Part shown: positions 1,714 to 35,219 of the stretch, piece after piece
Numbering within the stretch: position 1 is the first letter of the stretch
Layout of the letters: every line of letters begins with the position of its first letter
Origin: a virus
Direction: 5' to 3' (one strand)
IMG/VR virus record: IMGVR_UViG_3300017408_000002
Length of the DNA stretch: 39,055 nucleotides
Notes under the pieces: model-generated
Database searches by the model: none
What the model saw: the letters and a program-made list of their open reading frames with translations, nothing else
What the model was told of the DNA's origin: nothing
Translations under genes and position numbers: made by a program

Positions 1714-3996
1714 CTAGGCATCTATCGGAATGCGCAGCTCCAAAAACGCCGCTGTCATACCCGCTGTATTACCAATGGAAATATTGCCATTGGCCTGCCA
1801 GCGGACTGAAGTCTGCCCACTAGGGTAGGTAGTATCAGCTGTCGTAAAGGCGGGAACAAGCCTTGCCGATTCAGAAGATGGGCGGCGCCCTACTGGTAGG
1901 GAAACCGCCGCGGTGTTGGCGGCTGCGCCACCAAAACTAATCACACCTTTAACAAAGGTAAACCTACCTCCCCTGCGATACTGGGCGTTCGTAAAAGGCG
2001 ATGTAACTACGCCATACGGAGAAACTAGAAATGTGGGGGAGATGTTTTGCCATGGCTCATACCAAGAATAAACGTCATCGGGAGTAGAAGATGTGGCAGG
2101 CGAACAATTGATGTACTGGCAACTTTCATCGTGATAAACACGTCCAGAGTAGTTAGACCCTTTTAGAAAAATTGCGCCAAAAGAACCTACACATTTGAAT
2201 GTGTCACCCCTATGAATGATAACATCATCTGCCGCTCCAAGTGAACGGCACATCATTCCAGATCTCCCGGAGAGATATGGATATTGAGTGTCTGGGAAAA
2301 CTACCGCCGCGCCGATCCACGTCGTACCAGAAGAAAAAATCTTTAGCCCAGTCGCCTCACCCATGCTCAATGCGAACCCAGGCGTGAGGGTGGCTGATCC
2401 GCTGGTGGAACCATAGGATCCATCGAAAGTGCATCCGTTGACCAAATGCAGTTCACGCACCCCTTGCCCCCCCGCCATCGCGAGGGATCGAACAGAGAGA
2501 CTGCCGGTCAAGCATTGAACGCCGTCAAGAATGAGGGATCCTTGCAAGCACTCTTCAATGAAAAAACCTTCACTTTGCACATCTGGCGTGCCGTCATTAA
2601 CATTCCTACGCTTCTGTATAAGCCTAATGCGCCCATTTCCCGTGCCTCGCGCGGTGGACATGGGGCCGTAAGCTCTATTGGCAAATATAGAAAGGTCGTA
2701 TCCCTCAGAATATGTCATGGCTCCAGCCGCGGCGCTACCATCACAATTTATCGTGGCGCGCATATTGACGCTAGATCTGATTTCAAAATTGTAAGCGCTA
2801 TCAACCGTTGTCGTGACCACGCCAGTCGCTTCGCAATTTACAGCAAGTGCTTTTGAGTACCCAGCTGTGATCTGGCCTACCGATGAGTAATTGTATTTCA
2901 AAGGCGTTTTCAAAGTAACCAGAGTGCCACTGCGAGACCTGACCTGTACATATTCACCATCGAGGTCGATATAGTTGGGCTTCCCTGCGGCAAAAGAAGA
3001 CACAGATGTAGGCGGACCATTAAGCCTGATCCACTGGCCTTCTACGAACTCATTTGATGCCGGTGTGACATTAAGTACTATCTGGAATGCGCCTGCCGAA
3101 CACGGCTGTATTGCGATAAGGGTCGGAGAGCCGAACGCGTAATCAGGATCTCCGGAATCCGGAACCCAAGGGGTGGGCAACATCTGGCTTCCATATCCGT
3201 CCGGAAAGCCAGTAGAAGGCGTGCCGGGGCCTCCAGCAATGTATTTCTGCCCCGCTCCCCATGACCTTATCTTCGCACCGTTACACTCAAAACGCCAGGT
3301 TCCAAACATTTGGATATCCGCGTTCTGGTAGTTCTTACCCCCTACAAGGCGTAGTGTGGCCCCGGTCTGGTAACAATACGTATTTGCTCGACTTGATGCG
3401 GCAGCATAGTCGGTTTCACCGGGCATCAAAAAGTCATCCAAATCTACCGCGATGGATTTAATTTTTGACGCGCTATCGCGAGAGGGCAATGTGTCCGATA
3501 CCTTAAAGGCAATGCTATTTGCTGACTGTCGAACTAATGCACCGGTTGAAAGAGGAATGCCGTTGACCTGAACTACATCGGTGCGACCGGTAAAATTTCC
3601 TAGCTGGTAAGTAAACAAACCATTGGAAACGCCGCCATCTGCGCCTGAAGGGGAGGCCAGATTGTATGTAAGCCCGGTGATTCCCGCGGACTTCATAGCG
3701 GACAGAGTTGCATAGCTGTTTGCGTCGCCGCCCGCTGGGCCAACGGGGCCGCTGGCCAAGCCATCAACATTGCGAATCCAGCGACCGGCCTGCAATGGCG
3801 TCTTGTCGTAAGGGCGAATAACGTCCTTTCCGTCGTCAACCGCTGTTGAACCGGGGTCATACTCGAACAATCCCTGCAAACCGTTCACTAGATAGAGATC
3901 GCCATCAGCAATGAAGCTGGACGGAATAGCCCGCAAATCCTGCGCACTATCGACCTGTGCCAGATTACCCGGAAATGTTACGTTGACCGCTGCCAT
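1714..3996 (-). CDS. Tailspike / receptor-binding protein (760 aa), probably beta-helix type
   Basis: Size, last position in the virion module, and a Gly/Ser/Thr/Asn-rich repetitive body. The GC-normal N-terminal about 130 aa is followed by a low-GC body. GAGGG SD before ATG 3996. Confidence 0.6.
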   Translation of the reverse strand: MAAVNVTFPGNLAQVDSAQDLRAIPSSFIADGDLYLVNGLQGLFEYDPGSTAVDDGKDVIRPYDKTPLQAGRWIRNVDGLASGPVGPAGGDANSYATLSAMKSAGITGLTYNLASPSGADGGVSNGLFTYQLGNFTGRTDVVQVNGIPLSTGALVRQSANSIAFKVSDTLPSRDSASKIKSIAVDLDDFLMPGETDYAAASSRANTYCYQTGATLRLVGGKNYQNADIQMFGTWRFECNGAKIRSWGAGQKYIAGGPGTPSTGFPDGYGSQMLPTPWVPDSGDPDYAFGSPTLIAIQPCSAGAFQIVLNVTPASNEFVEGQWIRLNGPPTSVSSFAAGKPNYIDLDGEYVQVRSRSGTLVTLKTPLKYNYSSVGQITAGYSKALAVNCEATGVVTTTVDSAYNFEIRSSVNMRATINCDGSAAAGAMTYSEGYDLSIFANRAYGPMSTARGTGNGRIRLIQKRRNVNDGTPDVQSEGFFIEECLQGSLILDGVQCLTGSLSVRSLAMAGGQGVRELHLVNGCTFDGSYGSTSGSATLTPGFALSMGEATGLKIFSSGTTWIGAAVVFPDTQYPYLSGRSGMMCRSLGAADDVIIHRGDTFKCVGSFGAIFLKGSNYSGRVYHDESCQYINCSPATSSTPDDVYSWYEPWQNISPTFLVSPYGVVTSPFTNAQYRRGGRFTFVKGVISFGGAAANTAAVSLPVGRRPSSESARLVPAFTTADTTYPSGQTSVRWQANGNISIGNTAGMTAAFLELRIPIDA

Positions 3997-26356: not shown

Positions 26357-27217
26357 ATGTCCATCTTATCCCGCGCCTCCAAACCGGAGGCCGAACCCTT
26401 CGTCGGCACCATCGTCGGCGTACAGGGTACAGGCAAGACCAGCCTGGCCTGCACATTCCCAGACGTGTTTATGATCCGCACGCAGGGCGAAAAGCCGCCG
26501 CAGGACATTCCGGATAACCAGCAGCCTACGACGCTGGAAATCGAAACCGCAGCCGAGCTGTGGGATGCGCTGAAAGCGCTTCTGCGTGAGGATCACGCCT
26601 TTAAGACGCTGGCATTCGACACCGCGACTGGCCTCGACATCTTGTTCACCCAAGACGTGCTTGCGGCAGACGCAAACGCTCGCGGCCTGAACCAGAGCCA
26701 CGGCGGCTATGGCAATGGCGCTAGCATGGTGTCCGCGATGCACATGCGGGTGCGCAAGGCCGCTGAGATGCTGCGCAAACAGAAGGGCATGAATATTATC
26801 TTTCTGGCGCATGCCGAGATCGTGGATGTGTCACCGCCTGACGGTGAACCATATTCGTCCTACTCGCTGCGGCTGCCCAAGAAGTCGATGGCGCCCTACC
26901 TGGACTCCGTGGACTGCGTTGGCTTCCTGAAGCAGGAGCGTATCGTGCGCGGTGCCGTCGAAGCAAAGGGCGACCGCGGCGCAAAGCCGGGGCGTGCCAT
27001 CAGCAGTGGCGACCGGGTGCTGGTGACGTACCTGACGCCGGCAATGGCGAGCAAGAACCGCTACGGCATCACCGAGGATCTTGAGGTTGTGAAGGGCGAA
27101 AACCCGCTGGCCGCTTATGTGGGGCAGGGAAAGCCCAAGAAGGTACGACCCAAACCCGAGCCGGTGAACGAAGACAATACCCCTGACAGCATTGATGAAG
27201 AGGAGAATGCAGCGTGA
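26357..27217 (+). CDS. AAA_24 / Sak4-like RecA-fold ATPase (recombination/annealing helper)
   Basis: Walker A VGVQGTGKTSLA, Walker B-like TLAFDTATG, NIIFLAHAE. Acidic C-tail. AGGAAG SD. Confidence 0.8.
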   Translation: MSILSRASKPEAEPFVGTIVGVQGTGKTSLACTFPDVFMIRTQGEKPPQDIPDNQQPTTLEIETAAELWDALKALLREDHAFKTLAFDTATGLDILFTQDVLAADANARGLNQSHGGYGNGASMVSAMHMRVRKAAEMLRKQKGMNIIFLAHAEIVDVSPPDGEPYSSYSLRLPKKSMAPYLDSVDCVGFLKQERIVRGAVEAKGDRGAKPGRAISSGDRVLVTYLTPAMASKNRYGITEDLEVVKGENPLAAYVGQGKPKKVRPKPEPVNEDNTPDSIDEEENAA

Positions 27218-27804
27218 GCTTTTGGGATTTGGACGACGGCACCAGCGCCGTCAGTGGCGACAAGGAATTCAGTGCGGGCGGCGTTGACTTTGATGTAATT
27301 CCCAAAGGCACTAGCGTTCTAGTGACGGTAGAAGATGCCAACTGGAAGCCAGGGTATCAGGTCGAAGAAGAGTTCGTGAACCTGAAGGTGCGCGTGCTGA
27401 AGCCCGAGGCGTATGCCAATCGCGTCTTGTTCTTCAAGCTGTGGGTGGATGACCTTGACCCCGGCGTAAAGACCAACGGCGTGTTCGACAATGCCAAGGC
27501 CAAGACCAAGCGCGACAAGCATAAGAAGATGCTCATGGCGATCGACGCCAACAGCAAGGGTCGGCTGGCGAAGCTGACCTCGCGCATGGATAACGACCAG
27601 CTCGCCATGGCGCTTGTCGGCGGCCAGTTCGTCGCCACACTCGGCGTGTGGGACAAGGACGAAGGCGGCGTCAAGGTCCCCGGCGGCAACTGGCTGATGG
27701 CTGCAAAGCCCAAATCGGCAGAGATCAGCGATGGGCCGGCGCTCAAGGCCAAGCCAAAGGCGGCGCCGATCACCGATGACCTCGACGATGATGTCCCCTT
27801 CTAA
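27214..27804 (+). CDS. DUF669-like phage ssDNA-binding protein candidate (196 aa)
   Basis: GTGA-coupled to the ATPase. FDVIPKGTSVLVTVEDANWK...VNLKVRVLKPEAYANRVLFFKLWV pattern. Acidic C-terminal DDLDDDVPF tail, like SSB partner-binding tips. Confidence 0.6.
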   Translation: MSFWDLDDGTSAVSGDKEFSAGGVDFDVIPKGTSVLVTVEDANWKPGYQVEEEFVNLKVRVLKPEAYANRVLFFKLWVDDLDPGVKTNGVFDNAKAKTKRDKHKKMLMAIDANSKGRLAKLTSRMDNDQLAMALVGGQFVATLGVWDKDEGGVKVPGGNWLMAAKPKSAEISDGPALKAKPKAAPITDDLDDDVPF

Positions 27805-27872: not shown

Positions 27873-28040
27873 ATGAATTTTTATTTTAAGCGCAAACCAA
27901 TCAATGGCAGCAGATATGGCATTGGTTTTAAAAGCAAAAAGCAATTGCCCTTGGTGATGATTTGGAAGGAGTTTTTAAGCGAAGGCGAAGTTTGCGAAGC
28001 TTATGTTATTTATTCTTCTTACCGCGGCTACAAAGCATGA
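27873..28040 (+). CDS. AT-rich 55-aa micro-ORF (below the ORF-track cutoff), unknown function
   Basis: Hand translation: MNFYFKRKPINGSRYGIGFKSKKQLPLVMIWKEFLSEGEVCEAYVIYSSYRGYKA*. GGAGAG lies 5 nt upstream. ATGA overlap with the exonuclease start. Local GC hand count 24/60. Confidence 0.45.
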   Translation: MNFYFKRKPINGSRYGIGFKSKKQLPLVMIWKEFLSEGEVCEAYVIYSSYRGYKA

Positions 28041-28906
28041 CCGCCCCCCAGCGCTCTCCCGAATGGTTCGCCGCCCGTGCCAAGCGTATCACCGCAAGTC
28101 GCGTAGGCGCTATTCTTGGTCACTCCCCCTTTGCCACGCCTGATGATGTCATGCGCACGATGGTTCGTGAAGCCTTGGGCGCAGAAAGAGAGTTTACTGG
28201 CAACGTGGCCACCGCCTGGGGTAATGCTATGGAAGCAAATGCCATCGCGGACTTTGAGATGGAAACCGGCCTTTCCGTCGAGGCTACGGGTTTCCACGAA
28301 TACGAAGATTGGGCGGGTGTATCGCCAGACGGCCTGATCGGCCGCAACTGCGGCATAGAACAGAAGTGCCCCTACGGCCTGCGTAACGATCCTGAGCCGG
28401 TGTTCAAGCCGCTGAAGGAACAGCCGCATTATTACGATCAGGTGCAATTCACGATAAATTGTCTCAACCGTGATTGCTGGTGGTTCGTACAGTGGACGCC
28501 GCATGGTAGCGCACGGGAAATGGTGCCGCACAGCAAGGCGTGGGCCGATACCAATATGCCGATCTTGCGGCAGTTCTATGCGCGCTTCCTGTCTGAGCTG
28601 GAATCGCCGGATGAGCATCTAGCGCCATTGCGGACGGTGATCGACACCCCCGCAGCCGCCCTCATGGTAGCTGAATACGACCAGCTATCCGAAGCCATCT
28701 CGCTTGCGGAGGAACGCAAGAAGGACCTGCTCGCAGAGATGGTGGCGCTGGCTGGGGAGAGGAATGCGGTGTTTGGTGGGCGGAAGCTTACCCAAACAAC
28801 CCGCGCCGGTTCCGTGTCTTACGGCAAGGCGCTGAAGGAATTGGCACCGGGGGCGGATCTGTCGAAGTGGACGGGGAAGCCGTCGAGCTATTGGGGGTTG
28901 AAGTGA
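28037..28906 (+). CDS. YqaJ/lambda-exonuclease-like PD-(D/E)xK recombination exonuclease
   Basis: SPEWFAARAKRITASRVGAILGHSPF ... SPDGLI ... IEQKCPY. Start refined to ATG 28037. The track start 27962 is a TTG extension through AT-rich DNA. Confidence 0.8.
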   Translation: MTAPQRSPEWFAARAKRITASRVGAILGHSPFATPDDVMRTMVREALGAEREFTGNVATAWGNAMEANAIADFEMETGLSVEATGFHEYEDWAGVSPDGLIGRNCGIEQKCPYGLRNDPEPVFKPLKEQPHYYDQVQFTINCLNRDCWWFVQWTPHGSAREMVPHSKAWADTNMPILRQFYARFLSELESPDEHLAPLRTVIDTPAAALMVAEYDQLSEAISLAEERKKDLLAEMVALAGERNAVFGGRKLTQTTRAGSVSYGKALKELAPGADLSKWTGKPSSYWGLK

Positions 28907-29586
28907 TGTGGACCGTAGAGCCTTTAACCAAAAAACAAGCCGACGCTTTGGTTACAAAGCGCCATTATTCGCGTCGTGCCTCAATGTTTCAATATGCCTT
29001 TGGCTTGATTGAAAATGGAAAAATCGAAGGCGTTGTTGTATACGGCTCACCGCCATTGCAAGTAGTAAAGCATGCGTTAAACGGTGCAGATTTTCTTATG
29101 TTAGAACTGACTAGGTTGGTTATTCAAACAAAAGAAAAAAATGCAGCATCATTTCTAATTGGTCGTTCTTTGACCATGCTTCCGCAGCCGTGTGCTGTGG
29201 TTTCGTATGCGGATACAGAATTTAGCCATGCTGGCATTGTGTATCAAGCGACTAATTGGCTCTACACAGGCGCTACAAAATCACACGATCATATGTATTT
29301 GATCGACGGAAAACGCGTTCATCCTAGGACGTTAGCATCTCGCGGAATCACCAATCCTAAACAATGGGCAAAAGACAACGGCATTGAAACAGTGCCCCCG
29401 ATGTATAAGCATCGTTATTTCTTCTTTAACGGCAATAAGAAAGAGAAAAAGGCGCTTAGACTAAATCTTAAATATCCGGTTATAACGCCTTATCCTAAAA
29501 TGGATCAAAATAGATACGACGATGGCGAGCGTGTAGAAATGCATTTAACAGATAGGAATGCTGATTTTCAGCAGTCATTGCTATGA
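28906..29586 (+). CDS. GNAT-fold protein of the Mom-like (adenine methylcarbamoylation) type. DNA-modification candidate.
   Basis: KRHYSRR...YAFGL...GVVVYGSP...LELTRLV...VVSYADTEFSHAGIVYQATNWLYTG...HPR signature. I remember this signature from proteins annotated as Mom family. Strongly AT-rich (hand counts 27/60, 17/60 and 20/60, against 40/60 in the next gene). TGATG overlap. Confidence 0.5.
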   Translation: MWTVEPLTKKQADALVTKRHYSRRASMFQYAFGLIENGKIEGVVVYGSPPLQVVKHALNGADFLMLELTRLVIQTKEKNAASFLIGRSLTMLPQPCAVVSYADTEFSHAGIVYQATNWLYTGATKSHDHMYLIDGKRVHPRTLASRGITNPKQWAKDNGIETVPPMYKHRYFFFNGNKKEKKALRLNLKYPVITPYPKMDQNRYDDGERVEMHLTDRNADFQQSLL

Positions 29587-31382
29587 ACCTTCGCCCATAC
29601 CAAACCGCAGCCTGCGACGCCGCCCTAGACTACATGCGCACCACAACCAGCCCGTGCCTCATCGACGCAGCGCCCGCGGCCGGTAAAAGCCACATGATCG
29701 CCCACATCGCTGATCGACTACATGCCATCAGCGGCGGCAAGCGCATCCTGTGCCTCGCGCCCAATGCAAAGCTAGTCCACCAGAACAAGGAAAAGATGGA
29801 CCTGACCGGACACAAGTCCTCTATCTTTTCCGCCAGCGCTGGTGCCAAGTCCACACGACATTCGATAATTTTTGCCACCCCCGGCACGGTCAAGAATGCC
29901 ATCAGCCGCTTTAACGATGGCAGCTATTGCGCGGTCGTCGTGGATGAGTGCCACGGCATGACGCCCACTATCCGCGCCATCATCGACGCCATGCGGGTCG
30001 GCAACCCTAATCTGCGGGTGCTGGGCCTGACCGGTACGCCCTACGTGCTGGGCAAGGGCTATATCTTCCGCCAGCATCCCAACGGCAAGGTCAACGGCGA
30101 TGATCTGACCCGCGATCCGTATTTCACGCGATGCGTGTATCAGGTGTCCGCTCGCGAGATGCTGGATGCAGGCTACATAACCCCCATGGTTGTCGGCGCA
30201 ATTAACACAGACGCCTACGACACGTCGGGCGTTGTACTGCTGCCGAACGGCCATCTGGACGCCTCGACGGTTGAATGCGCCTTCGTAGGCCACGGGCGTC
30301 AGACTGCGCATGTGGTGGCGGATGTCGTGGCGCAGGCTCAACACAGGAAGGGCGGTGTGATGCTCTTTGCCGCCACCGTGGCGCACGCGCATGAGATCAT
30401 GGCCAGCCTGCCGCCGGGTAACTCCGTGCTGGTGACGGGCGACATGGATCCGGCGGCAGAGAAACGGGCTGTGGCGTCGTATAAGGCACACCGGGTCCGC
30501 TACGTCGTTAGCGTCGGCAAACTCACCACCGGATTCGACGCGCCGTGGACCGAGATCATCGCGGTGCTTCGGTTTACCGAGTCCGCCACGCTGCTGACCC
30601 AGATCCTGGGGCGGGCATGGCGGCTGTTCGATGGCAAGCGAAATGCGCTATGGCTGGACTATGCCGGCAATGTCGAGCGCCACTTCCCGGACGGGGACAT
30701 TTACAAGCCCACTATCAAAGCAGGCAAAGCCGCAGAAGGCGGTGACGGCATCGAGGCGGAGTGTCCATCGTGCGGTTATGCCAACAACTTCACCGCCACG
30801 CCTGACGGCCAAGTCTACAAGCTCGATAAGCACGGATACTGCCTCGACGTTTGGGGTGCGCGGGTGGAAACCGAATACGGTCCCATGCCGGGTCATTTCG
30901 GCAGGCGCTGCAACGGCTTGATCAAAATCGGGCCGGAGTACGAACGCTGTAATTATTTCTGGACCGCAAAGGAATGTGAGGCATGCGGCGAGAAGAACGA
31001 CATCGCGGCGCGGTTCTGTCGGTCTTGCAAAGCGGAGATCATCAATCCGAACGATCGCCTGGTGCTGCAATTCGAAGCGCTGAAGAAAGATCCGTATGCT
31101 CCGCAAACTGATGTCGTGCTATCTGTGTCTAGGAAAGATTCTGTTTCCCAACGGGGCAACCCGGTAGTGCGGGCGGATTGGGTGACGCCGTATAGGCGGT
31201 TCGCGACCTTCCACCAGCCCGAAGCGACCTTCGCGAAAGCCCAGAGGGACTGGCAACGCTTTGACGAGGCAACGCGCCACGGACAGCCCGAGACGATTAG
31301 CTACGTCAAGGAAATGAACGGGTTTTTCCGGGTGCTGGCGTTCAACGAGCCGGCTGATACCGTACAGGAGATGGCAGCATGA
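29583..31382 (+). CDS. SF2 DEAD/DEAH-box DNA helicase with C-terminal zinc ribbons
   Basis: Motif I DAAPAAGKSH, motif II VVVDECH, motif III GLTGTP, motif VI QILGRAWR. CPSCG...C, CEACG...CRSC. Confidence 0.85.
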   Translation: MNLRPYQTAACDAALDYMRTTTSPCLIDAAPAAGKSHMIAHIADRLHAISGGKRILCLAPNAKLVHQNKEKMDLTGHKSSIFSASAGAKSTRHSIIFATPGTVKNAISRFNDGSYCAVVVDECHGMTPTIRAIIDAMRVGNPNLRVLGLTGTPYVLGKGYIFRQHPNGKVNGDDLTRDPYFTRCVYQVSAREMLDAGYITPMVVGAINTDAYDTSGVVLLPNGHLDASTVECAFVGHGRQTAHVVADVVAQAQHRKGGVMLFAATVAHAHEIMASLPPGNSVLVTGDMDPAAEKRAVASYKAHRVRYVVSVGKLTTGFDAPWTEIIAVLRFTESATLLTQILGRAWRLFDGKRNALWLDYAGNVERHFPDGDIYKPTIKAGKAAEGGDGIEAECPSCGYANNFTATPDGQVYKLDKHGYCLDVWGARVETEYGPMPGHFGRRCNGLIKIGPEYERCNYFWTAKECEACGEKNDIAARFCRSCKAEIINPNDRLVLQFEALKKDPYAPQTDVVLSVSRKDSVSQRGNPVVRADWVTPYRRFATFHQPEATFAKAQRDWQRFDEATRHGQPETISYVKEMNGFFRVLAFNEPADTVQEMAA

Positions 31383-33740: not shown

Positions 33741-34003
33741 GCTTCATTGAAAATCCGCCGGCCTTTCCGAATGATGGCCGCGGGCCACGTTGGCCGGAGC
33801 AAAACGGCATGACGCTGCGCGACTGGTTTGCGGGCAAGTTCCTAGCTGGGGTTGCTGCCTCGCCTGACACTGCCCTTGAGGTGCCAGCCGATTGCCGTCA
33901 GCACGAGCTTGATGCTGCCCTTGCAGAGCATTGGGGGCAGGTAGCCCGCGCAGCCTACATCGCTGCCGACGCCATGCTAGCAGTCCGCGGAAACGCAGCA
34001 TGA
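33737..34003 (+). CDS. Hypothetical protein (88 aa; alternative start ATG 33809)
   Basis: GTGA overlap. MTLRDWFAGKFLAGV motif is common in small phage proteins. Confidence 0.5.
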   Translation: MSFIENPPAFPNDGRGPRWPEQNGMTLRDWFAGKFLAGVAASPDTALEVPADCRQHELDAALAEHWGQVARAAYIAADAMLAVRGNAA

Positions 34004-34170
34004 TCCTCGACACCCCCACCAACGCAGACATCATGCGCTCCGTCCATGATGCACAGGCGCGGCTTGGGCTGGAGCCTGAGTTTGCTTTCATCCACCATTC
34101 GACCACATTCGACGTCGAGTACCGCGCAGCACGTCGCGCGCTCGATGCAATCCGACAGGAGCTAATCTGA
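34000..34170 (+). CDS. Hypothetical protein (56 aa)
   Basis: ATGA overlap at 34000-34003. MILDTPTNADIM... Confidence 0.5.
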   Translation: MILDTPTNADIMRSVHDAQARLGLEPEFAFIHHSTTFDVEYRAARRALDAIRQELI

Positions 34171-34391
34171 TGGAACCCCGTATTTTCAAAACCACGAAGC
34201 GCGCCAGCTTCGGTGTCACTCGCTCTGGCTACGATGCCGATCAGCCTGCGAACCTGTCGCAGTGGCAGAAGGAGACGATGGGCGAGCTGATCCCGTTGGA
34301 GGGAAAGCCGGACTATATCGTAAGCCTGAAGGAGTTTCTGGCGGTTGCGGTACTGGTGGCGGCTGTCGTCGCTCTTGTGGTGTCGCTGTGA
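34170..34391 (+). CDS. Small C-tail-anchored membrane protein (73 aa)
   Basis: TGATG overlap. C-terminal FLAVAVLVAAVVALVVSL. Confidence 0.5.
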   Translation: MEPRIFKTTKRASFGVTRSGYDADQPANLSQWQKETMGELIPLEGKPDYIVSLKEFLAVAVLVAAVVALVVSL

Positions 34392-35035
34392 TGACCGACG
34401 CAAGCAACGAGGTGGTGCTGCTGCCGTGTCCGTTTTGTGGGGGCGAGTGGGGTTTAGGACAGGAGCCGGACGACAATTATCCTTTCCAAAGCATGTGGTA
34501 TTTATACCATAAGTCTCCACGCTGCTTTTGGAATTGGTCGCCCCCTCATTTCGCCAATCGTGATGCAGCCGTGTTTGCTTGGAACCACCGCATCGCCCAC
34601 TCCGATCCCCGCCCGGTTGCGGAAGGTCTGCGGGAGGCGTTAGTCGGACTGTGCAGCGCTTATGTGGCCCTTGATACCGAAGGCCACCGCCATGCTGCCG
34701 GGTCTTGGTATCAACACGCTCGCACCACCCTCGCCACCCATAGCCCCGCACCGATGGCGGGGGAGGAAGCTTGCCCGGTATGCAACGGAGACTGCGGCAG
34801 CGCGAATCCGCCCGTGATGTTCTGCCCGATGCGTGACATGCCTGCCCCCCATAGCCCCACGCCGGTGATGATTCCGGCAGGCTACGTGCTGGTGCCGGTC
34901 GAGCCGACCGAGGCGATGATACAGGCGGTTTGGAAAGCAACATTGGGCGGCTCGTTGCTTGCCGCTGAACGTGCAGCACGCGCCATGATAGCCGCCGCCC
35001 ATCCTTCGACGCAGGAGGGCGCTGACCGTGGCTGA
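34391..35035 (+). CDS. Lar-like restriction-alleviation domain fused to a Cys-rich C-terminal extension (214 aa)
   Basis: VVLLPCPFCGGEW...C...RDAAVFAWNHR follows the Lar family pattern (CPFCGG ... eAi.aWNrR). Followed by CPVCNGDCGSANPPVMFCP and VPVEPTEAMIQAV. TGATG overlap. Confidence 0.5.
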   Translation: MTDASNEVVLLPCPFCGGEWGLGQEPDDNYPFQSMWYLYHKSPRCFWNWSPPHFANRDAAVFAWNHRIAHSDPRPVAEGLREALVGLCSAYVALDTEGHRHAAGSWYQHARTTLATHSPAPMAGEEACPVCNGDCGSANPPVMFCPMRDMPAPHSPTPVMIPAGYVLVPVEPTEAMIQAVWKATLGGSLLAAERAARAMIAAAHPSTQEGADRG

Positions 35036-35219
35036 TAGCGAGACTTACAGCACTGACGCCCCTGAATGCCCCTACTGCGGGTACAAGCAGGGCCACGACG
35101 GCGGCTATTTCTACGACGAGGACCTGACCGAAACCGAGTGCGGCTCGTGCGAGCGACTATTCGAGGTCGAGGTGTATCACCGCACGTCGTGGACGTGCCG
35201 CCCAAAGGACGCAGCATGA
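35028..35219 (+). CDS. Zinc-ribbon protein (63 aa)
   Basis: CPYCG-x25-CGSC four-Cys ribbon. GTG start overlapping the upstream end. Confidence 0.5.
   Translation: MADSETYSTDAPECPYCGYKQGHDGGYFYDEDLTETECGSCERLFEVEVYHRTSWTCRPKDAA

Follow-up and report, generated by a model that had tools for sequence, protein, structure and literature searches.

The 39,055-nucleotide (nt) viral DNA of IMG/VR record IMGVR_UViG_3300017408_000002, referred to throughout as the window (the whole stretch analysed), carries a gene for a GNAT-fold protein of the Mom family, inserted as a single-gene cassette between a recombination exonuclease gene and a helicase gene. That the protein belongs to this family and that its gene was acquired horizontally we regard as practically certain. 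The gene is intact and probably encodes an active transferase of a subgroup that we call His-type, with which the phage would modify its own DNA against restriction. The gene itself is listed first, and further features are given where they are needed.

28906–29586 (+): Mom-family (PF25680) GNAT gene, 226 amino acids (aa), inserted low-G+C (GC) cassette, His-type subgroup

The cassette encodes a member of the Mom family

The product of the gene matched the Pfam family PF25680, "Mom protein family", with 128 bits against a gathering cut-off of 27.1 (E-value (E) 4.9e-37), residues 2–190 aligning to profile positions 2–200 of 202. It also matched PHROG 1384, "Mom-like DNA modification protein", at E 2.9e-47. 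When the PDB was searched with phmmer, the sole sequence match was 8bv8, the Mom protein of phage Mu (E 3e-8). AlphaFold2, run with 124 sequences, gave a model with a predicted local distance difference test score (pLDDT) of 93.1 and a predicted template modelling score (pTM) of 0.87. Comparison of this model with the PDB by Foldseek placed the two chains of 8bv8 at ranks 1 and 2 (E 2e-11, template modelling (TM) score 0.66–0.71), with generic GNAT acetyltransferases behind them at E 3e-5 or weaker and TM scores of ~0.45. None of the Pfam acetyltransferase families (Acetyltransf_1 and relatives) was matched at E ≤1.

A first-pass annotation of the window, made from the letters alone, had called the gene a Mom-like GNAT on the strength of a motif signature. 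That motif is present (HY at 20–21, FGL at 32–34, ELTRL at 67–71 and SYADTEFSHAGIVYQATNWLYTG at 100–122), and the identity was borne out by the profile match, by sequence similarity to 8bv8 and by the fold. Compared by profile with Mom and with other GNAT families, the protein fitted Mom best (128 bits), and no unrelated acetyltransferase clade was returned. A weak PHROG match to the homing-endonuclease family phrog_3339 (E 0.0096) was set aside as noise or as a Mom-like domain fused within that family.

The gene is thus named at once by Pfam and PHROGs, its annotation is routine, and a known, catalogued family gains another member, ordinary but well documented. The value of the finding lies in a cleanly documented cargo slot and in the attention that it draws to the uncharacterised His-type majority of Mom proteins.

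The gene occupies a variable cargo slot

The walls of the insertion site and its two junctions are as follows.

28037–28906 (+): YqaJ/RecE-like recombination exonuclease gene, left wall of the slot (PF09588 YqaJ, E 1.4e-17; phrog_434, E 3.9e-37)
28904–28908 (+): TGATG, exonuclease stop over the start of the Mom-like gene, translational coupling
29583–29586 (+): ATGA, helicase start over the stop of the Mom-like gene, from direct reading of the sequence
29583–31382 (+): superfamily 2 (SF2) DNA helicase gene, right wall of the slot (phrog_16, E 2.5e-64; DEAD/ResIII/Helicase_C)

Direct reading of the sequence shows that the exonuclease TGA (28904–28906) and the ATG of the Mom-like gene (28906–28908) have one A in common, and that the TGA of the Mom-like gene (29584–29586) overlaps the ATG of the helicase gene (29583–29585). 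This reproduces the gene coordinates and both overlaps reported in the first-pass annotation, and the coupling to the exonuclease and helicase genes that it had described is real. A G-run lying 8 nt upstream, at 28893–28897, is likely the Shine–Dalgarno element of the Mom-like gene. No obvious ribosome-binding site was seen 5′ of the helicase ATG at 29583, so translation of the helicase is probably coupled to the inserted gene. A scan for promoters and terminators revealed nothing convincing on the plus strand inside or flanking the Mom-like gene, the counts (promoters, 7 versus 4.2 ± 1.7 in shuffled sequence; terminators, 11 versus 7.6 ± 3.0) lying within ~2 standard deviations of shuffled sequence; this null result fits read-through of the operon.

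To place the insertion, we compared the locus with those of 21 IMG/VR contigs retrieved by a helicase search (siblings; helicase identity 50–97%). The Mom-like gene is present in none of the 21 sibling loci. Nucleotide homology to all siblings stops at 28906–28908 and restarts at 29579–29595, leaving 28909–29578 uncovered. The slot is empty in 9 of the 21, where the exonuclease and helicase genes abut. In four contigs (L005, L006, L007 and L019) the exonuclease stop and the helicase start overlap directly by ATGA (...GGGGGCTTAAATGAC...), and both flanking proteins of L007 are 93–94% identical to those of the window.

Elsewhere the slot holds other cargo. The genes found there encode a C5 DNA methylase (PF00145) in L004, an N6/N4 methylase (PF01555) in L010, and DNA methyltransferases (PHROGs 757 and 799) in L002 and L020, the latter also carrying ThyX (PF02511). 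A phosphoadenosine phosphosulfate (PAPS)-reductase-like gene accompanies a GIY-YIG endonuclease gene in L016, GIY-YIG and HNH endonucleases occur in L013 and L017, and function is unassigned for the cargo of L003/L022 (phrog_12600), L008 (phrog_24928), and L018 and L021 (small open reading frames, ORFs). Many of the sibling cargo genes begin on or beside the exonuclease stop at a common left junction, TGGGGGTTGAAGTGA, and several end at or beside the helicase start. The exonuclease/helicase junction is a bona fide variable cargo slot, the content of which has probably been exchanged by recombination in the conserved flanks. As a natural experiment in how phages exchange cargo the slot is unusually clean, and only in the window phage does it hold a Mom-like gene.

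DNA-modification genes are the commonest identifiable content of the slot, which speaks for DNA as the target of the Mom-like protein too, and the same context marks phrog_12600 and phrog_24928 as candidate modification or anti-defence genes. The orphan DNA methyltransferases of the siblings (L002, L004, L010 and L020) share with the Mom-like gene the slot, the coupling and a presumed part in self-protection of phage DNA, but their fold is unrelated and their chemistry is methyl transfer dependent on S-adenosylmethionine rather than GNAT acyl transfer. The slot protein of L008 (5504–6001, 176 aa) was considered as a distant Mom relative and rejected (BLASTP E 0.076; hhalign probability 0.4%); it has a RHYSRQ motif at an N-terminal position matching RHYSRR of the Mom-like protein.

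The sibling loci also settle the start of the gene. Automatic gene calling had chosen a GTG at 28867, giving a protein of 239 aa (P0001). This start is an artefact: the 13 residues that it adds come from the conserved 3′ end of the exonuclease gene, translated in a frame other than that of the exonuclease, and the extra N-terminal stretch MDGEAVELLGVEV (28867–28905) precedes most sibling cargo genes whatever the cargo. Both the homologues and the Pfam match begin at the ATG at 28906.

The composition of the cassette sets it apart from the rest of the window. Its GC content is 41.7% compared with 58.6% for the whole window, and it is the lowest-GC 681-nt stretch in the 39 kb (z = −4.7 over all 681-nt windows; the next elsewhere is at 48.6%). 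GC at third codon positions (GC3) is 37.9%, versus 66–78% in the adjoining genes. On an index resembling the codon adaptation index (CAI) and built on the backbone genes, the gene scores 0.53, whereas most backbone genes score 0.72–0.81, the exceptions being two at 0.67 and 0.58. Rare codons account for 4.9% of the gene compared with ≤2.5% in backbone genes. The G+C counts per 60-nt line in the first-pass annotation are exact, with the lines in register with position 1: 27 (29041), 17 (29101), 20 (29401) and, in the helicase gene, 40 (29641). From these counts a recent foreign insertion had been concluded. Foreign insertion is upheld by the composition and, more decisively, by the sibling comparison, in which no sibling has the gene and homology breaks exactly at its ends. 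The word "recent" holds in part: it rests on the unameliorated composition and on the lack of the gene in every sibling, yet even the nearest of these gene-free contigs shows only ~85–90% nucleotide identity in the flanks.

Active-site residues are kept in a subgroup distinct from Mu Mom

Mu Mom moves glycine from Gly-tRNA(Gly) to the N6 of adenine in double-stranded DNA, after which the glycyl group rearranges on the base to form N6-carbamoylmethyl (Silva et al., Nat Commun 2026, PMC13219725). Residues R111, S124 and R151 are essential, the activity of R151A in vivo being undetectable; substitution of H58, Y59, W48, Y159 or W181 causes a drastic loss of activity, and D149A a great loss (PMC13219725). 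The importance of H58, Y59, R111, S124, D149 and Y159 is established by mutagenesis (PMC7261163, PMC13219725), and R111 is conserved in Mom homologues but not across GNATs (PMC7261163). W48 is required for dimerisation as well as activity, the helix-turn-helix-like insertion (175–209) is essential and is the proposed DNA-binding part, and removal of 20 N-terminal residues reduces activity, a basic segment at 11–19 being proposed to help bind tRNA (PMC13219725).

We aligned the Mom-like protein with Mu Mom and 239 homologues, 120 from the Mu clade and 119 from the present clade. The corresponding features of the gene are the following.

28963–28968 (+): H20-Y21 codons, equivalent to Mu H58-Y59, invariant in 119/119 clade members
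29113–29115 (+): R70 codon, equivalent to Mu R111, 119/119 in the clade
29149–29151 (+): S82 codon, equivalent to Mu S124, 118/119 in the clade
29212–29244 (+): D103-T-E105-F-S-H108-A-G-I-V-Y113 codons; D103 (Mu D149) and Y113 (Mu Y159) both kept
29296–29394 (+): counterpart of the helix-turn-helix-like insertion, residues ~131–163, full length by alignment to Mu 175–209
29500–29583 (+): 28-residue C-terminal tail past YPK with a clade-conserved Y-D-D-G, no counterpart in Mu Mom, whose last residues are YPK

Although the Mom-like protein and Mu Mom (PDB 8BV8) are only ~23–28% identical, they share PF25680, the GNAT fold, the insertion and all six active-site residues, which are kept as H20, Y21, R70, S82, D103 and Y113 and are invariant or nearly so among the 119 clade members. 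The AlphaFold2 model shows the insertion as helices 140–145 and 151–157 between strands 136–138 and 161–163. In both phages a single gene suffices, and the phage-encoded anti-restriction role of Mu Mom is presumed here. The genetic setting differs, since the com–mom arrangement of Mu, where the com gene overlaps mom on its upstream side and expression is late, is absent: the gene upstream encodes the 289-aa YqaJ/RecE-like exonuclease, and the Mom-like gene lies inside a recombination/replication operon with neither the zinc-finger translational activator Com nor a late-promoter context.

The catalytic region also separates two types of Mom. Position 151 of Mu is Arg in 120/120 members of the Mu clade (ADERCG), while among the 119 members of the present clade it is Glu in 99, Ala in 13 and Arg in none; H108 stands at the site of Mu R154 and is His in 119/119 of the present clade. 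The family comprises 5967 clusters at 50% identity with E ≤1e-3, or 3664 with E ≤1e-10. Among the 134 top cluster representatives with a readable motif, 97 lack Arg at Mu-151 and 92 have the His, so that, as judged from these motifs, the Mu type is the minority of the family and the His-type the majority. The Mom-like protein does not belong to the Mu type, the only one for which we found published biochemistry. What is known of the mechanism of Mom was all worked out in the Mu clade, and the majority clade lacks a residue that is essential there.

Cultured phages with His-type proteins are numerous and infect, among others, Listeria, Staphylococcus, Bacillus, Vibrio, Mycobacterium and Microbacterium. 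Members of PHROG 1384 in Bacillus Riggi (gp9), Listeria A511 (gp178), Staphylococcus Alsa_2, Microbacterium BarnCat (gp63), Polaribacter P12002L, Roseobacter CRP-902 and Acinetobacter JeffCo are 30–40% identical to the Mom-like protein over the full length and have the His-type motif [SF][YF]AD-x4-H-x-G-x-[VI]YQA without Arg at Mu-151. The proteins of Riggi, A511, Alsa_2 and JeffCo have a similar C-terminal Y-x-x-G-E-R tail, but their insertion is shortened, whereas that of the window protein is full length. The hosts of these phages belong to other phyla and the genome contexts are different; the genes often adjoin replication genes or DNA methyltransferase genes. To our knowledge, DNA modification has been demonstrated for none of these cultured-phage proteins. 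In a metagenomic protein of 1439 aa (P0302), a His-type Mom domain forms the C-terminus of a family-B DNA polymerase that is interrupted by an intein/LAGLIDADG insert. Whether this is a genuine fusion or a read-through gene call, it is a further link between Mom-like and replication genes.

Proposed function and alternative targets

We propose that the Mom-like gene entered the phage as a single-gene cassette at the exonuclease/helicase slot. Judging from the overlaps, its translation would be coupled to that of the exonuclease (TGATG) and ribosomes would be handed on to the helicase (ATGA), and the enzyme would be made along with the replication and recombination proteins while the phage DNA replicates. 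By analogy with Mu Mom, it would grip double-stranded phage DNA through the helix-turn-helix-like insertion and transfer an activated acyl or aminoacyl group to the exocyclic amine of a base. The donor would most likely be a host aminoacyl-tRNA, probably Gly-tRNA as in Mu, and the bulky adduct would shield the genome from host restriction endonucleases. No tRNA genes, tRNA(Gly) included, were found in the phage, a result that is neutral for this proposal because Mu uses host tRNA. Taking the kept residues, the fold and the slot together, we consider it likely that the Mom-like protein modifies DNA.

Several observations weigh against this proposal. E105 occupies the site of Mu's essential R151, Mu W48 and W181 are replaced by K10 and R137, and 38 N-terminal residues of Mu Mom, with the basic 11–19 segment, are absent, the protein starting at about Mu residue 39. 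No NCBIfam model matched the Mom-like protein at E ≤1; Mu-clade proteins bear the NCBI name "Mom family adenine methylcarbamoylation protein". Poor codon adaptation (CAI-like index 0.53, 4.9% rare codons) could restrict expression. Finally, the searchable literature yielded no biochemical data on any His-type Mom-like protein, although the sequences of the two metagenomic Mom homologues found to be active (PMC13219725) were not covered.

Because R151, W48, W181 and the N-terminal arm are lost, and His108 and the C-terminal tail are gained, the donor, target and product cannot be transferred from Mu. N6-carbamoylmethyl-adenine is only one possible product, since R151, W48, W181 and the basic arm differ and no NCBIfam model is matched, and we retain it as a tentative candidate; the first-pass annotation had likewise left room for other adducts. 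It is less probable, though worth consideration, that His-type enzymes install a DNA hypermodification unlike that of Mu, a difference that might lie in another aminoacyl-tRNA or acyl donor or in another target base. In that case the phage genome would carry an undescribed base modification, acquired through a mobile cassette of one gene that is exchanged for methyltransferases at a single genomic slot.

The same fold could also serve another target, the protein being a GNAT that acylates a host protein, a charged tRNA in the manner of TacT/AtaT, or a small molecule, in host takeover or counter-defence. Such a role would accommodate the replacement of Mu R151 by Glu and the missing W48, W181 and N-terminal arm, as well as expression together with early/middle replication genes, whereas mom of Mu is expressed late. 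Moreover, many acetyl-CoA enzymes have the same generic GNAT fold, and GenBank annotators often name such proteins just "acetyltransferase". However, the helix-turn-helix-like insertion, which is Mom-specific among GNATs and is the proposed DNA binder, has been kept, and R70, the counterpart of the Mom-conserved but not GNAT-wide R111 (PMC7261163), is invariant. In structure the protein resembles Mom far more closely than any acetyl-CoA GNAT, no Pfam acetyltransferase family is matched, and the genes in the slot and in the neighbourhoods of relatives are mostly concerned with DNA modification or replication. The FemX family and the TacT/AtaT toxins, GNATs that use aminoacyl-tRNA, share the fold with the Mom-like protein, but there is no specific match past the generic GNAT core, and they act on peptidoglycan precursors or charged tRNA instead of DNA. 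For Mu Mom itself, FemX-like binding of tRNA and TacT-like binding of DNA have been proposed (PMC13219725). A target other than DNA is improbable on this evidence.

Relatives and origin of the cassette

Identity to the Mom-like protein does not exceed 73% even in its best homologues, which are metagenomic. The nearest two are P0002 in L028 (468–1142; 73% identity) and P0003 in L023 (6001–6675; 68% identity), both encoded between exonuclease and helicase genes in high-GC phages (56–58% GC) that are only distant kin of the window phage (for L023, helicase ~30% and Sak4 26% identity). Both genes are AT-shifted, at 47% GC and 9–11 GC points under their backbones. A comparison with L023 and L028 for donor homology beyond the ORF gave only internal similarity (71–74% in nucleotide sequence). 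Clade members at 60–63% identity, which adjoin genes for DNA polymerase A or SNF2 helicases, match the composition of their backbones (L036, 59.9% GC and 79% GC3; L024, 59% GC and 76% GC3), so the low GC is not forced by the Mom-like protein. Other His-type members adjoin DNA polymerases, helicases or DNA methyltransferases. The simplest reading is that several high-GC phages received, in analogous slots, members of one cassette lineage from a lower-GC gene pool.

The low GC could instead have been selected, with rare codons throttling a toxic enzyme or with a functional AT-rich sequence, in an old resident of the cassette lineage among high-GC phages. The window gene, P0002 (L028) and P0003 (L023) all lie in exonuclease/helicase slots of phages with 56–59% GC and are 9–17 GC points under their backbones, yet are only 68–73% identical to one another, and untimely expression of Mu Mom is toxic (PMC3378877). 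This explanation is rather improbable, because the 60–63% identical genes of L036 and L024 match their backbones, which indicates that neither the protein nor its function needs low GC, and because 0/21 siblings carry the gene, which is thus no old resident of this phage lineage. That the cassette is an inactive or barely expressed passenger, selfish or neutral and heading for decay, is more improbable still: its very poor codon adaptation, its dispensability for this type of phage as seen in the siblings, and the selfish homing endonucleases in the same slot of other siblings would all suit such a passenger, but the frame is intact and full length with all clade-invariant residues, the precise overlaps at both ends probably make helicase translation now dependent on it, its sequence is identical in three independent assemblies, and the very large conserved family (the 3664 clusters at E ≤1e-10) implies purifying selection.

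The phage and its other genes

The operon begins upstream of the exonuclease gene with two further genes.

26357–27217 (+): Sak4-like annealing protein gene, operon start (phrog_124, E 1.3e-32)
27214–27804 (+): SSB gene, same operon (phrog_9002, E 2.4e-35)

The gene order is Sak4, SSB, exonuclease, Mom, helicase and nuclease, and the window also encodes a primase-helicase, a P22-like portal, a large terminase and a capsid protein. The same genome was found in three independent metagenome contigs of ~39.1 kb each, with the Mom-like gene intact and identical in all. In one of the three, the Mom-like gene is located at the contig end, an arrangement consistent with a complete, circularly permuted genome. 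A megablast search of GenBank phages with the 5.5-kb operon gave no match, and hence no cultured close relative in that collection, and scanning 185,579 genomes of bacteria and archaea for the helicase gave no relative, hence no prophage copy and no host assignment. PADLOC defence models gave only a 13-bit match at chance level.

A Lar-like gene had been put forward in the first-pass annotation as a second anti-restriction layer. The ORF concerned (LLPCPFCGG...FAWNHR; 34391–35035, +) scores 14.3 bits with PF14354, below the cut-off of 28.6 (E 0.048; profile positions 3–57 of 58), and is thus a candidate only. It overlaps a minus-strand ORF of 450 aa (33744–35096) without a family match. A zinc-ribbon ORF at 35028–35219 was also tried as Lar and had no Lar match.

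A second variable slot is apparent downstream of the helicase gene, where ~630–680 extra nt separate it from a phrog_824 nuclease-like gene in L005, L006, L008, L020 and L021; in the window the two share an ATGA overlap (31379–31382). Deviant composition also marks a second segment, the 760-aa ORF at 1714–3996 (−), with a GC content of ~50–52% and a CAI-like index of 0.58; this is probably a gene for a tail fibre or receptor-binding protein that has been exchanged horizontally.

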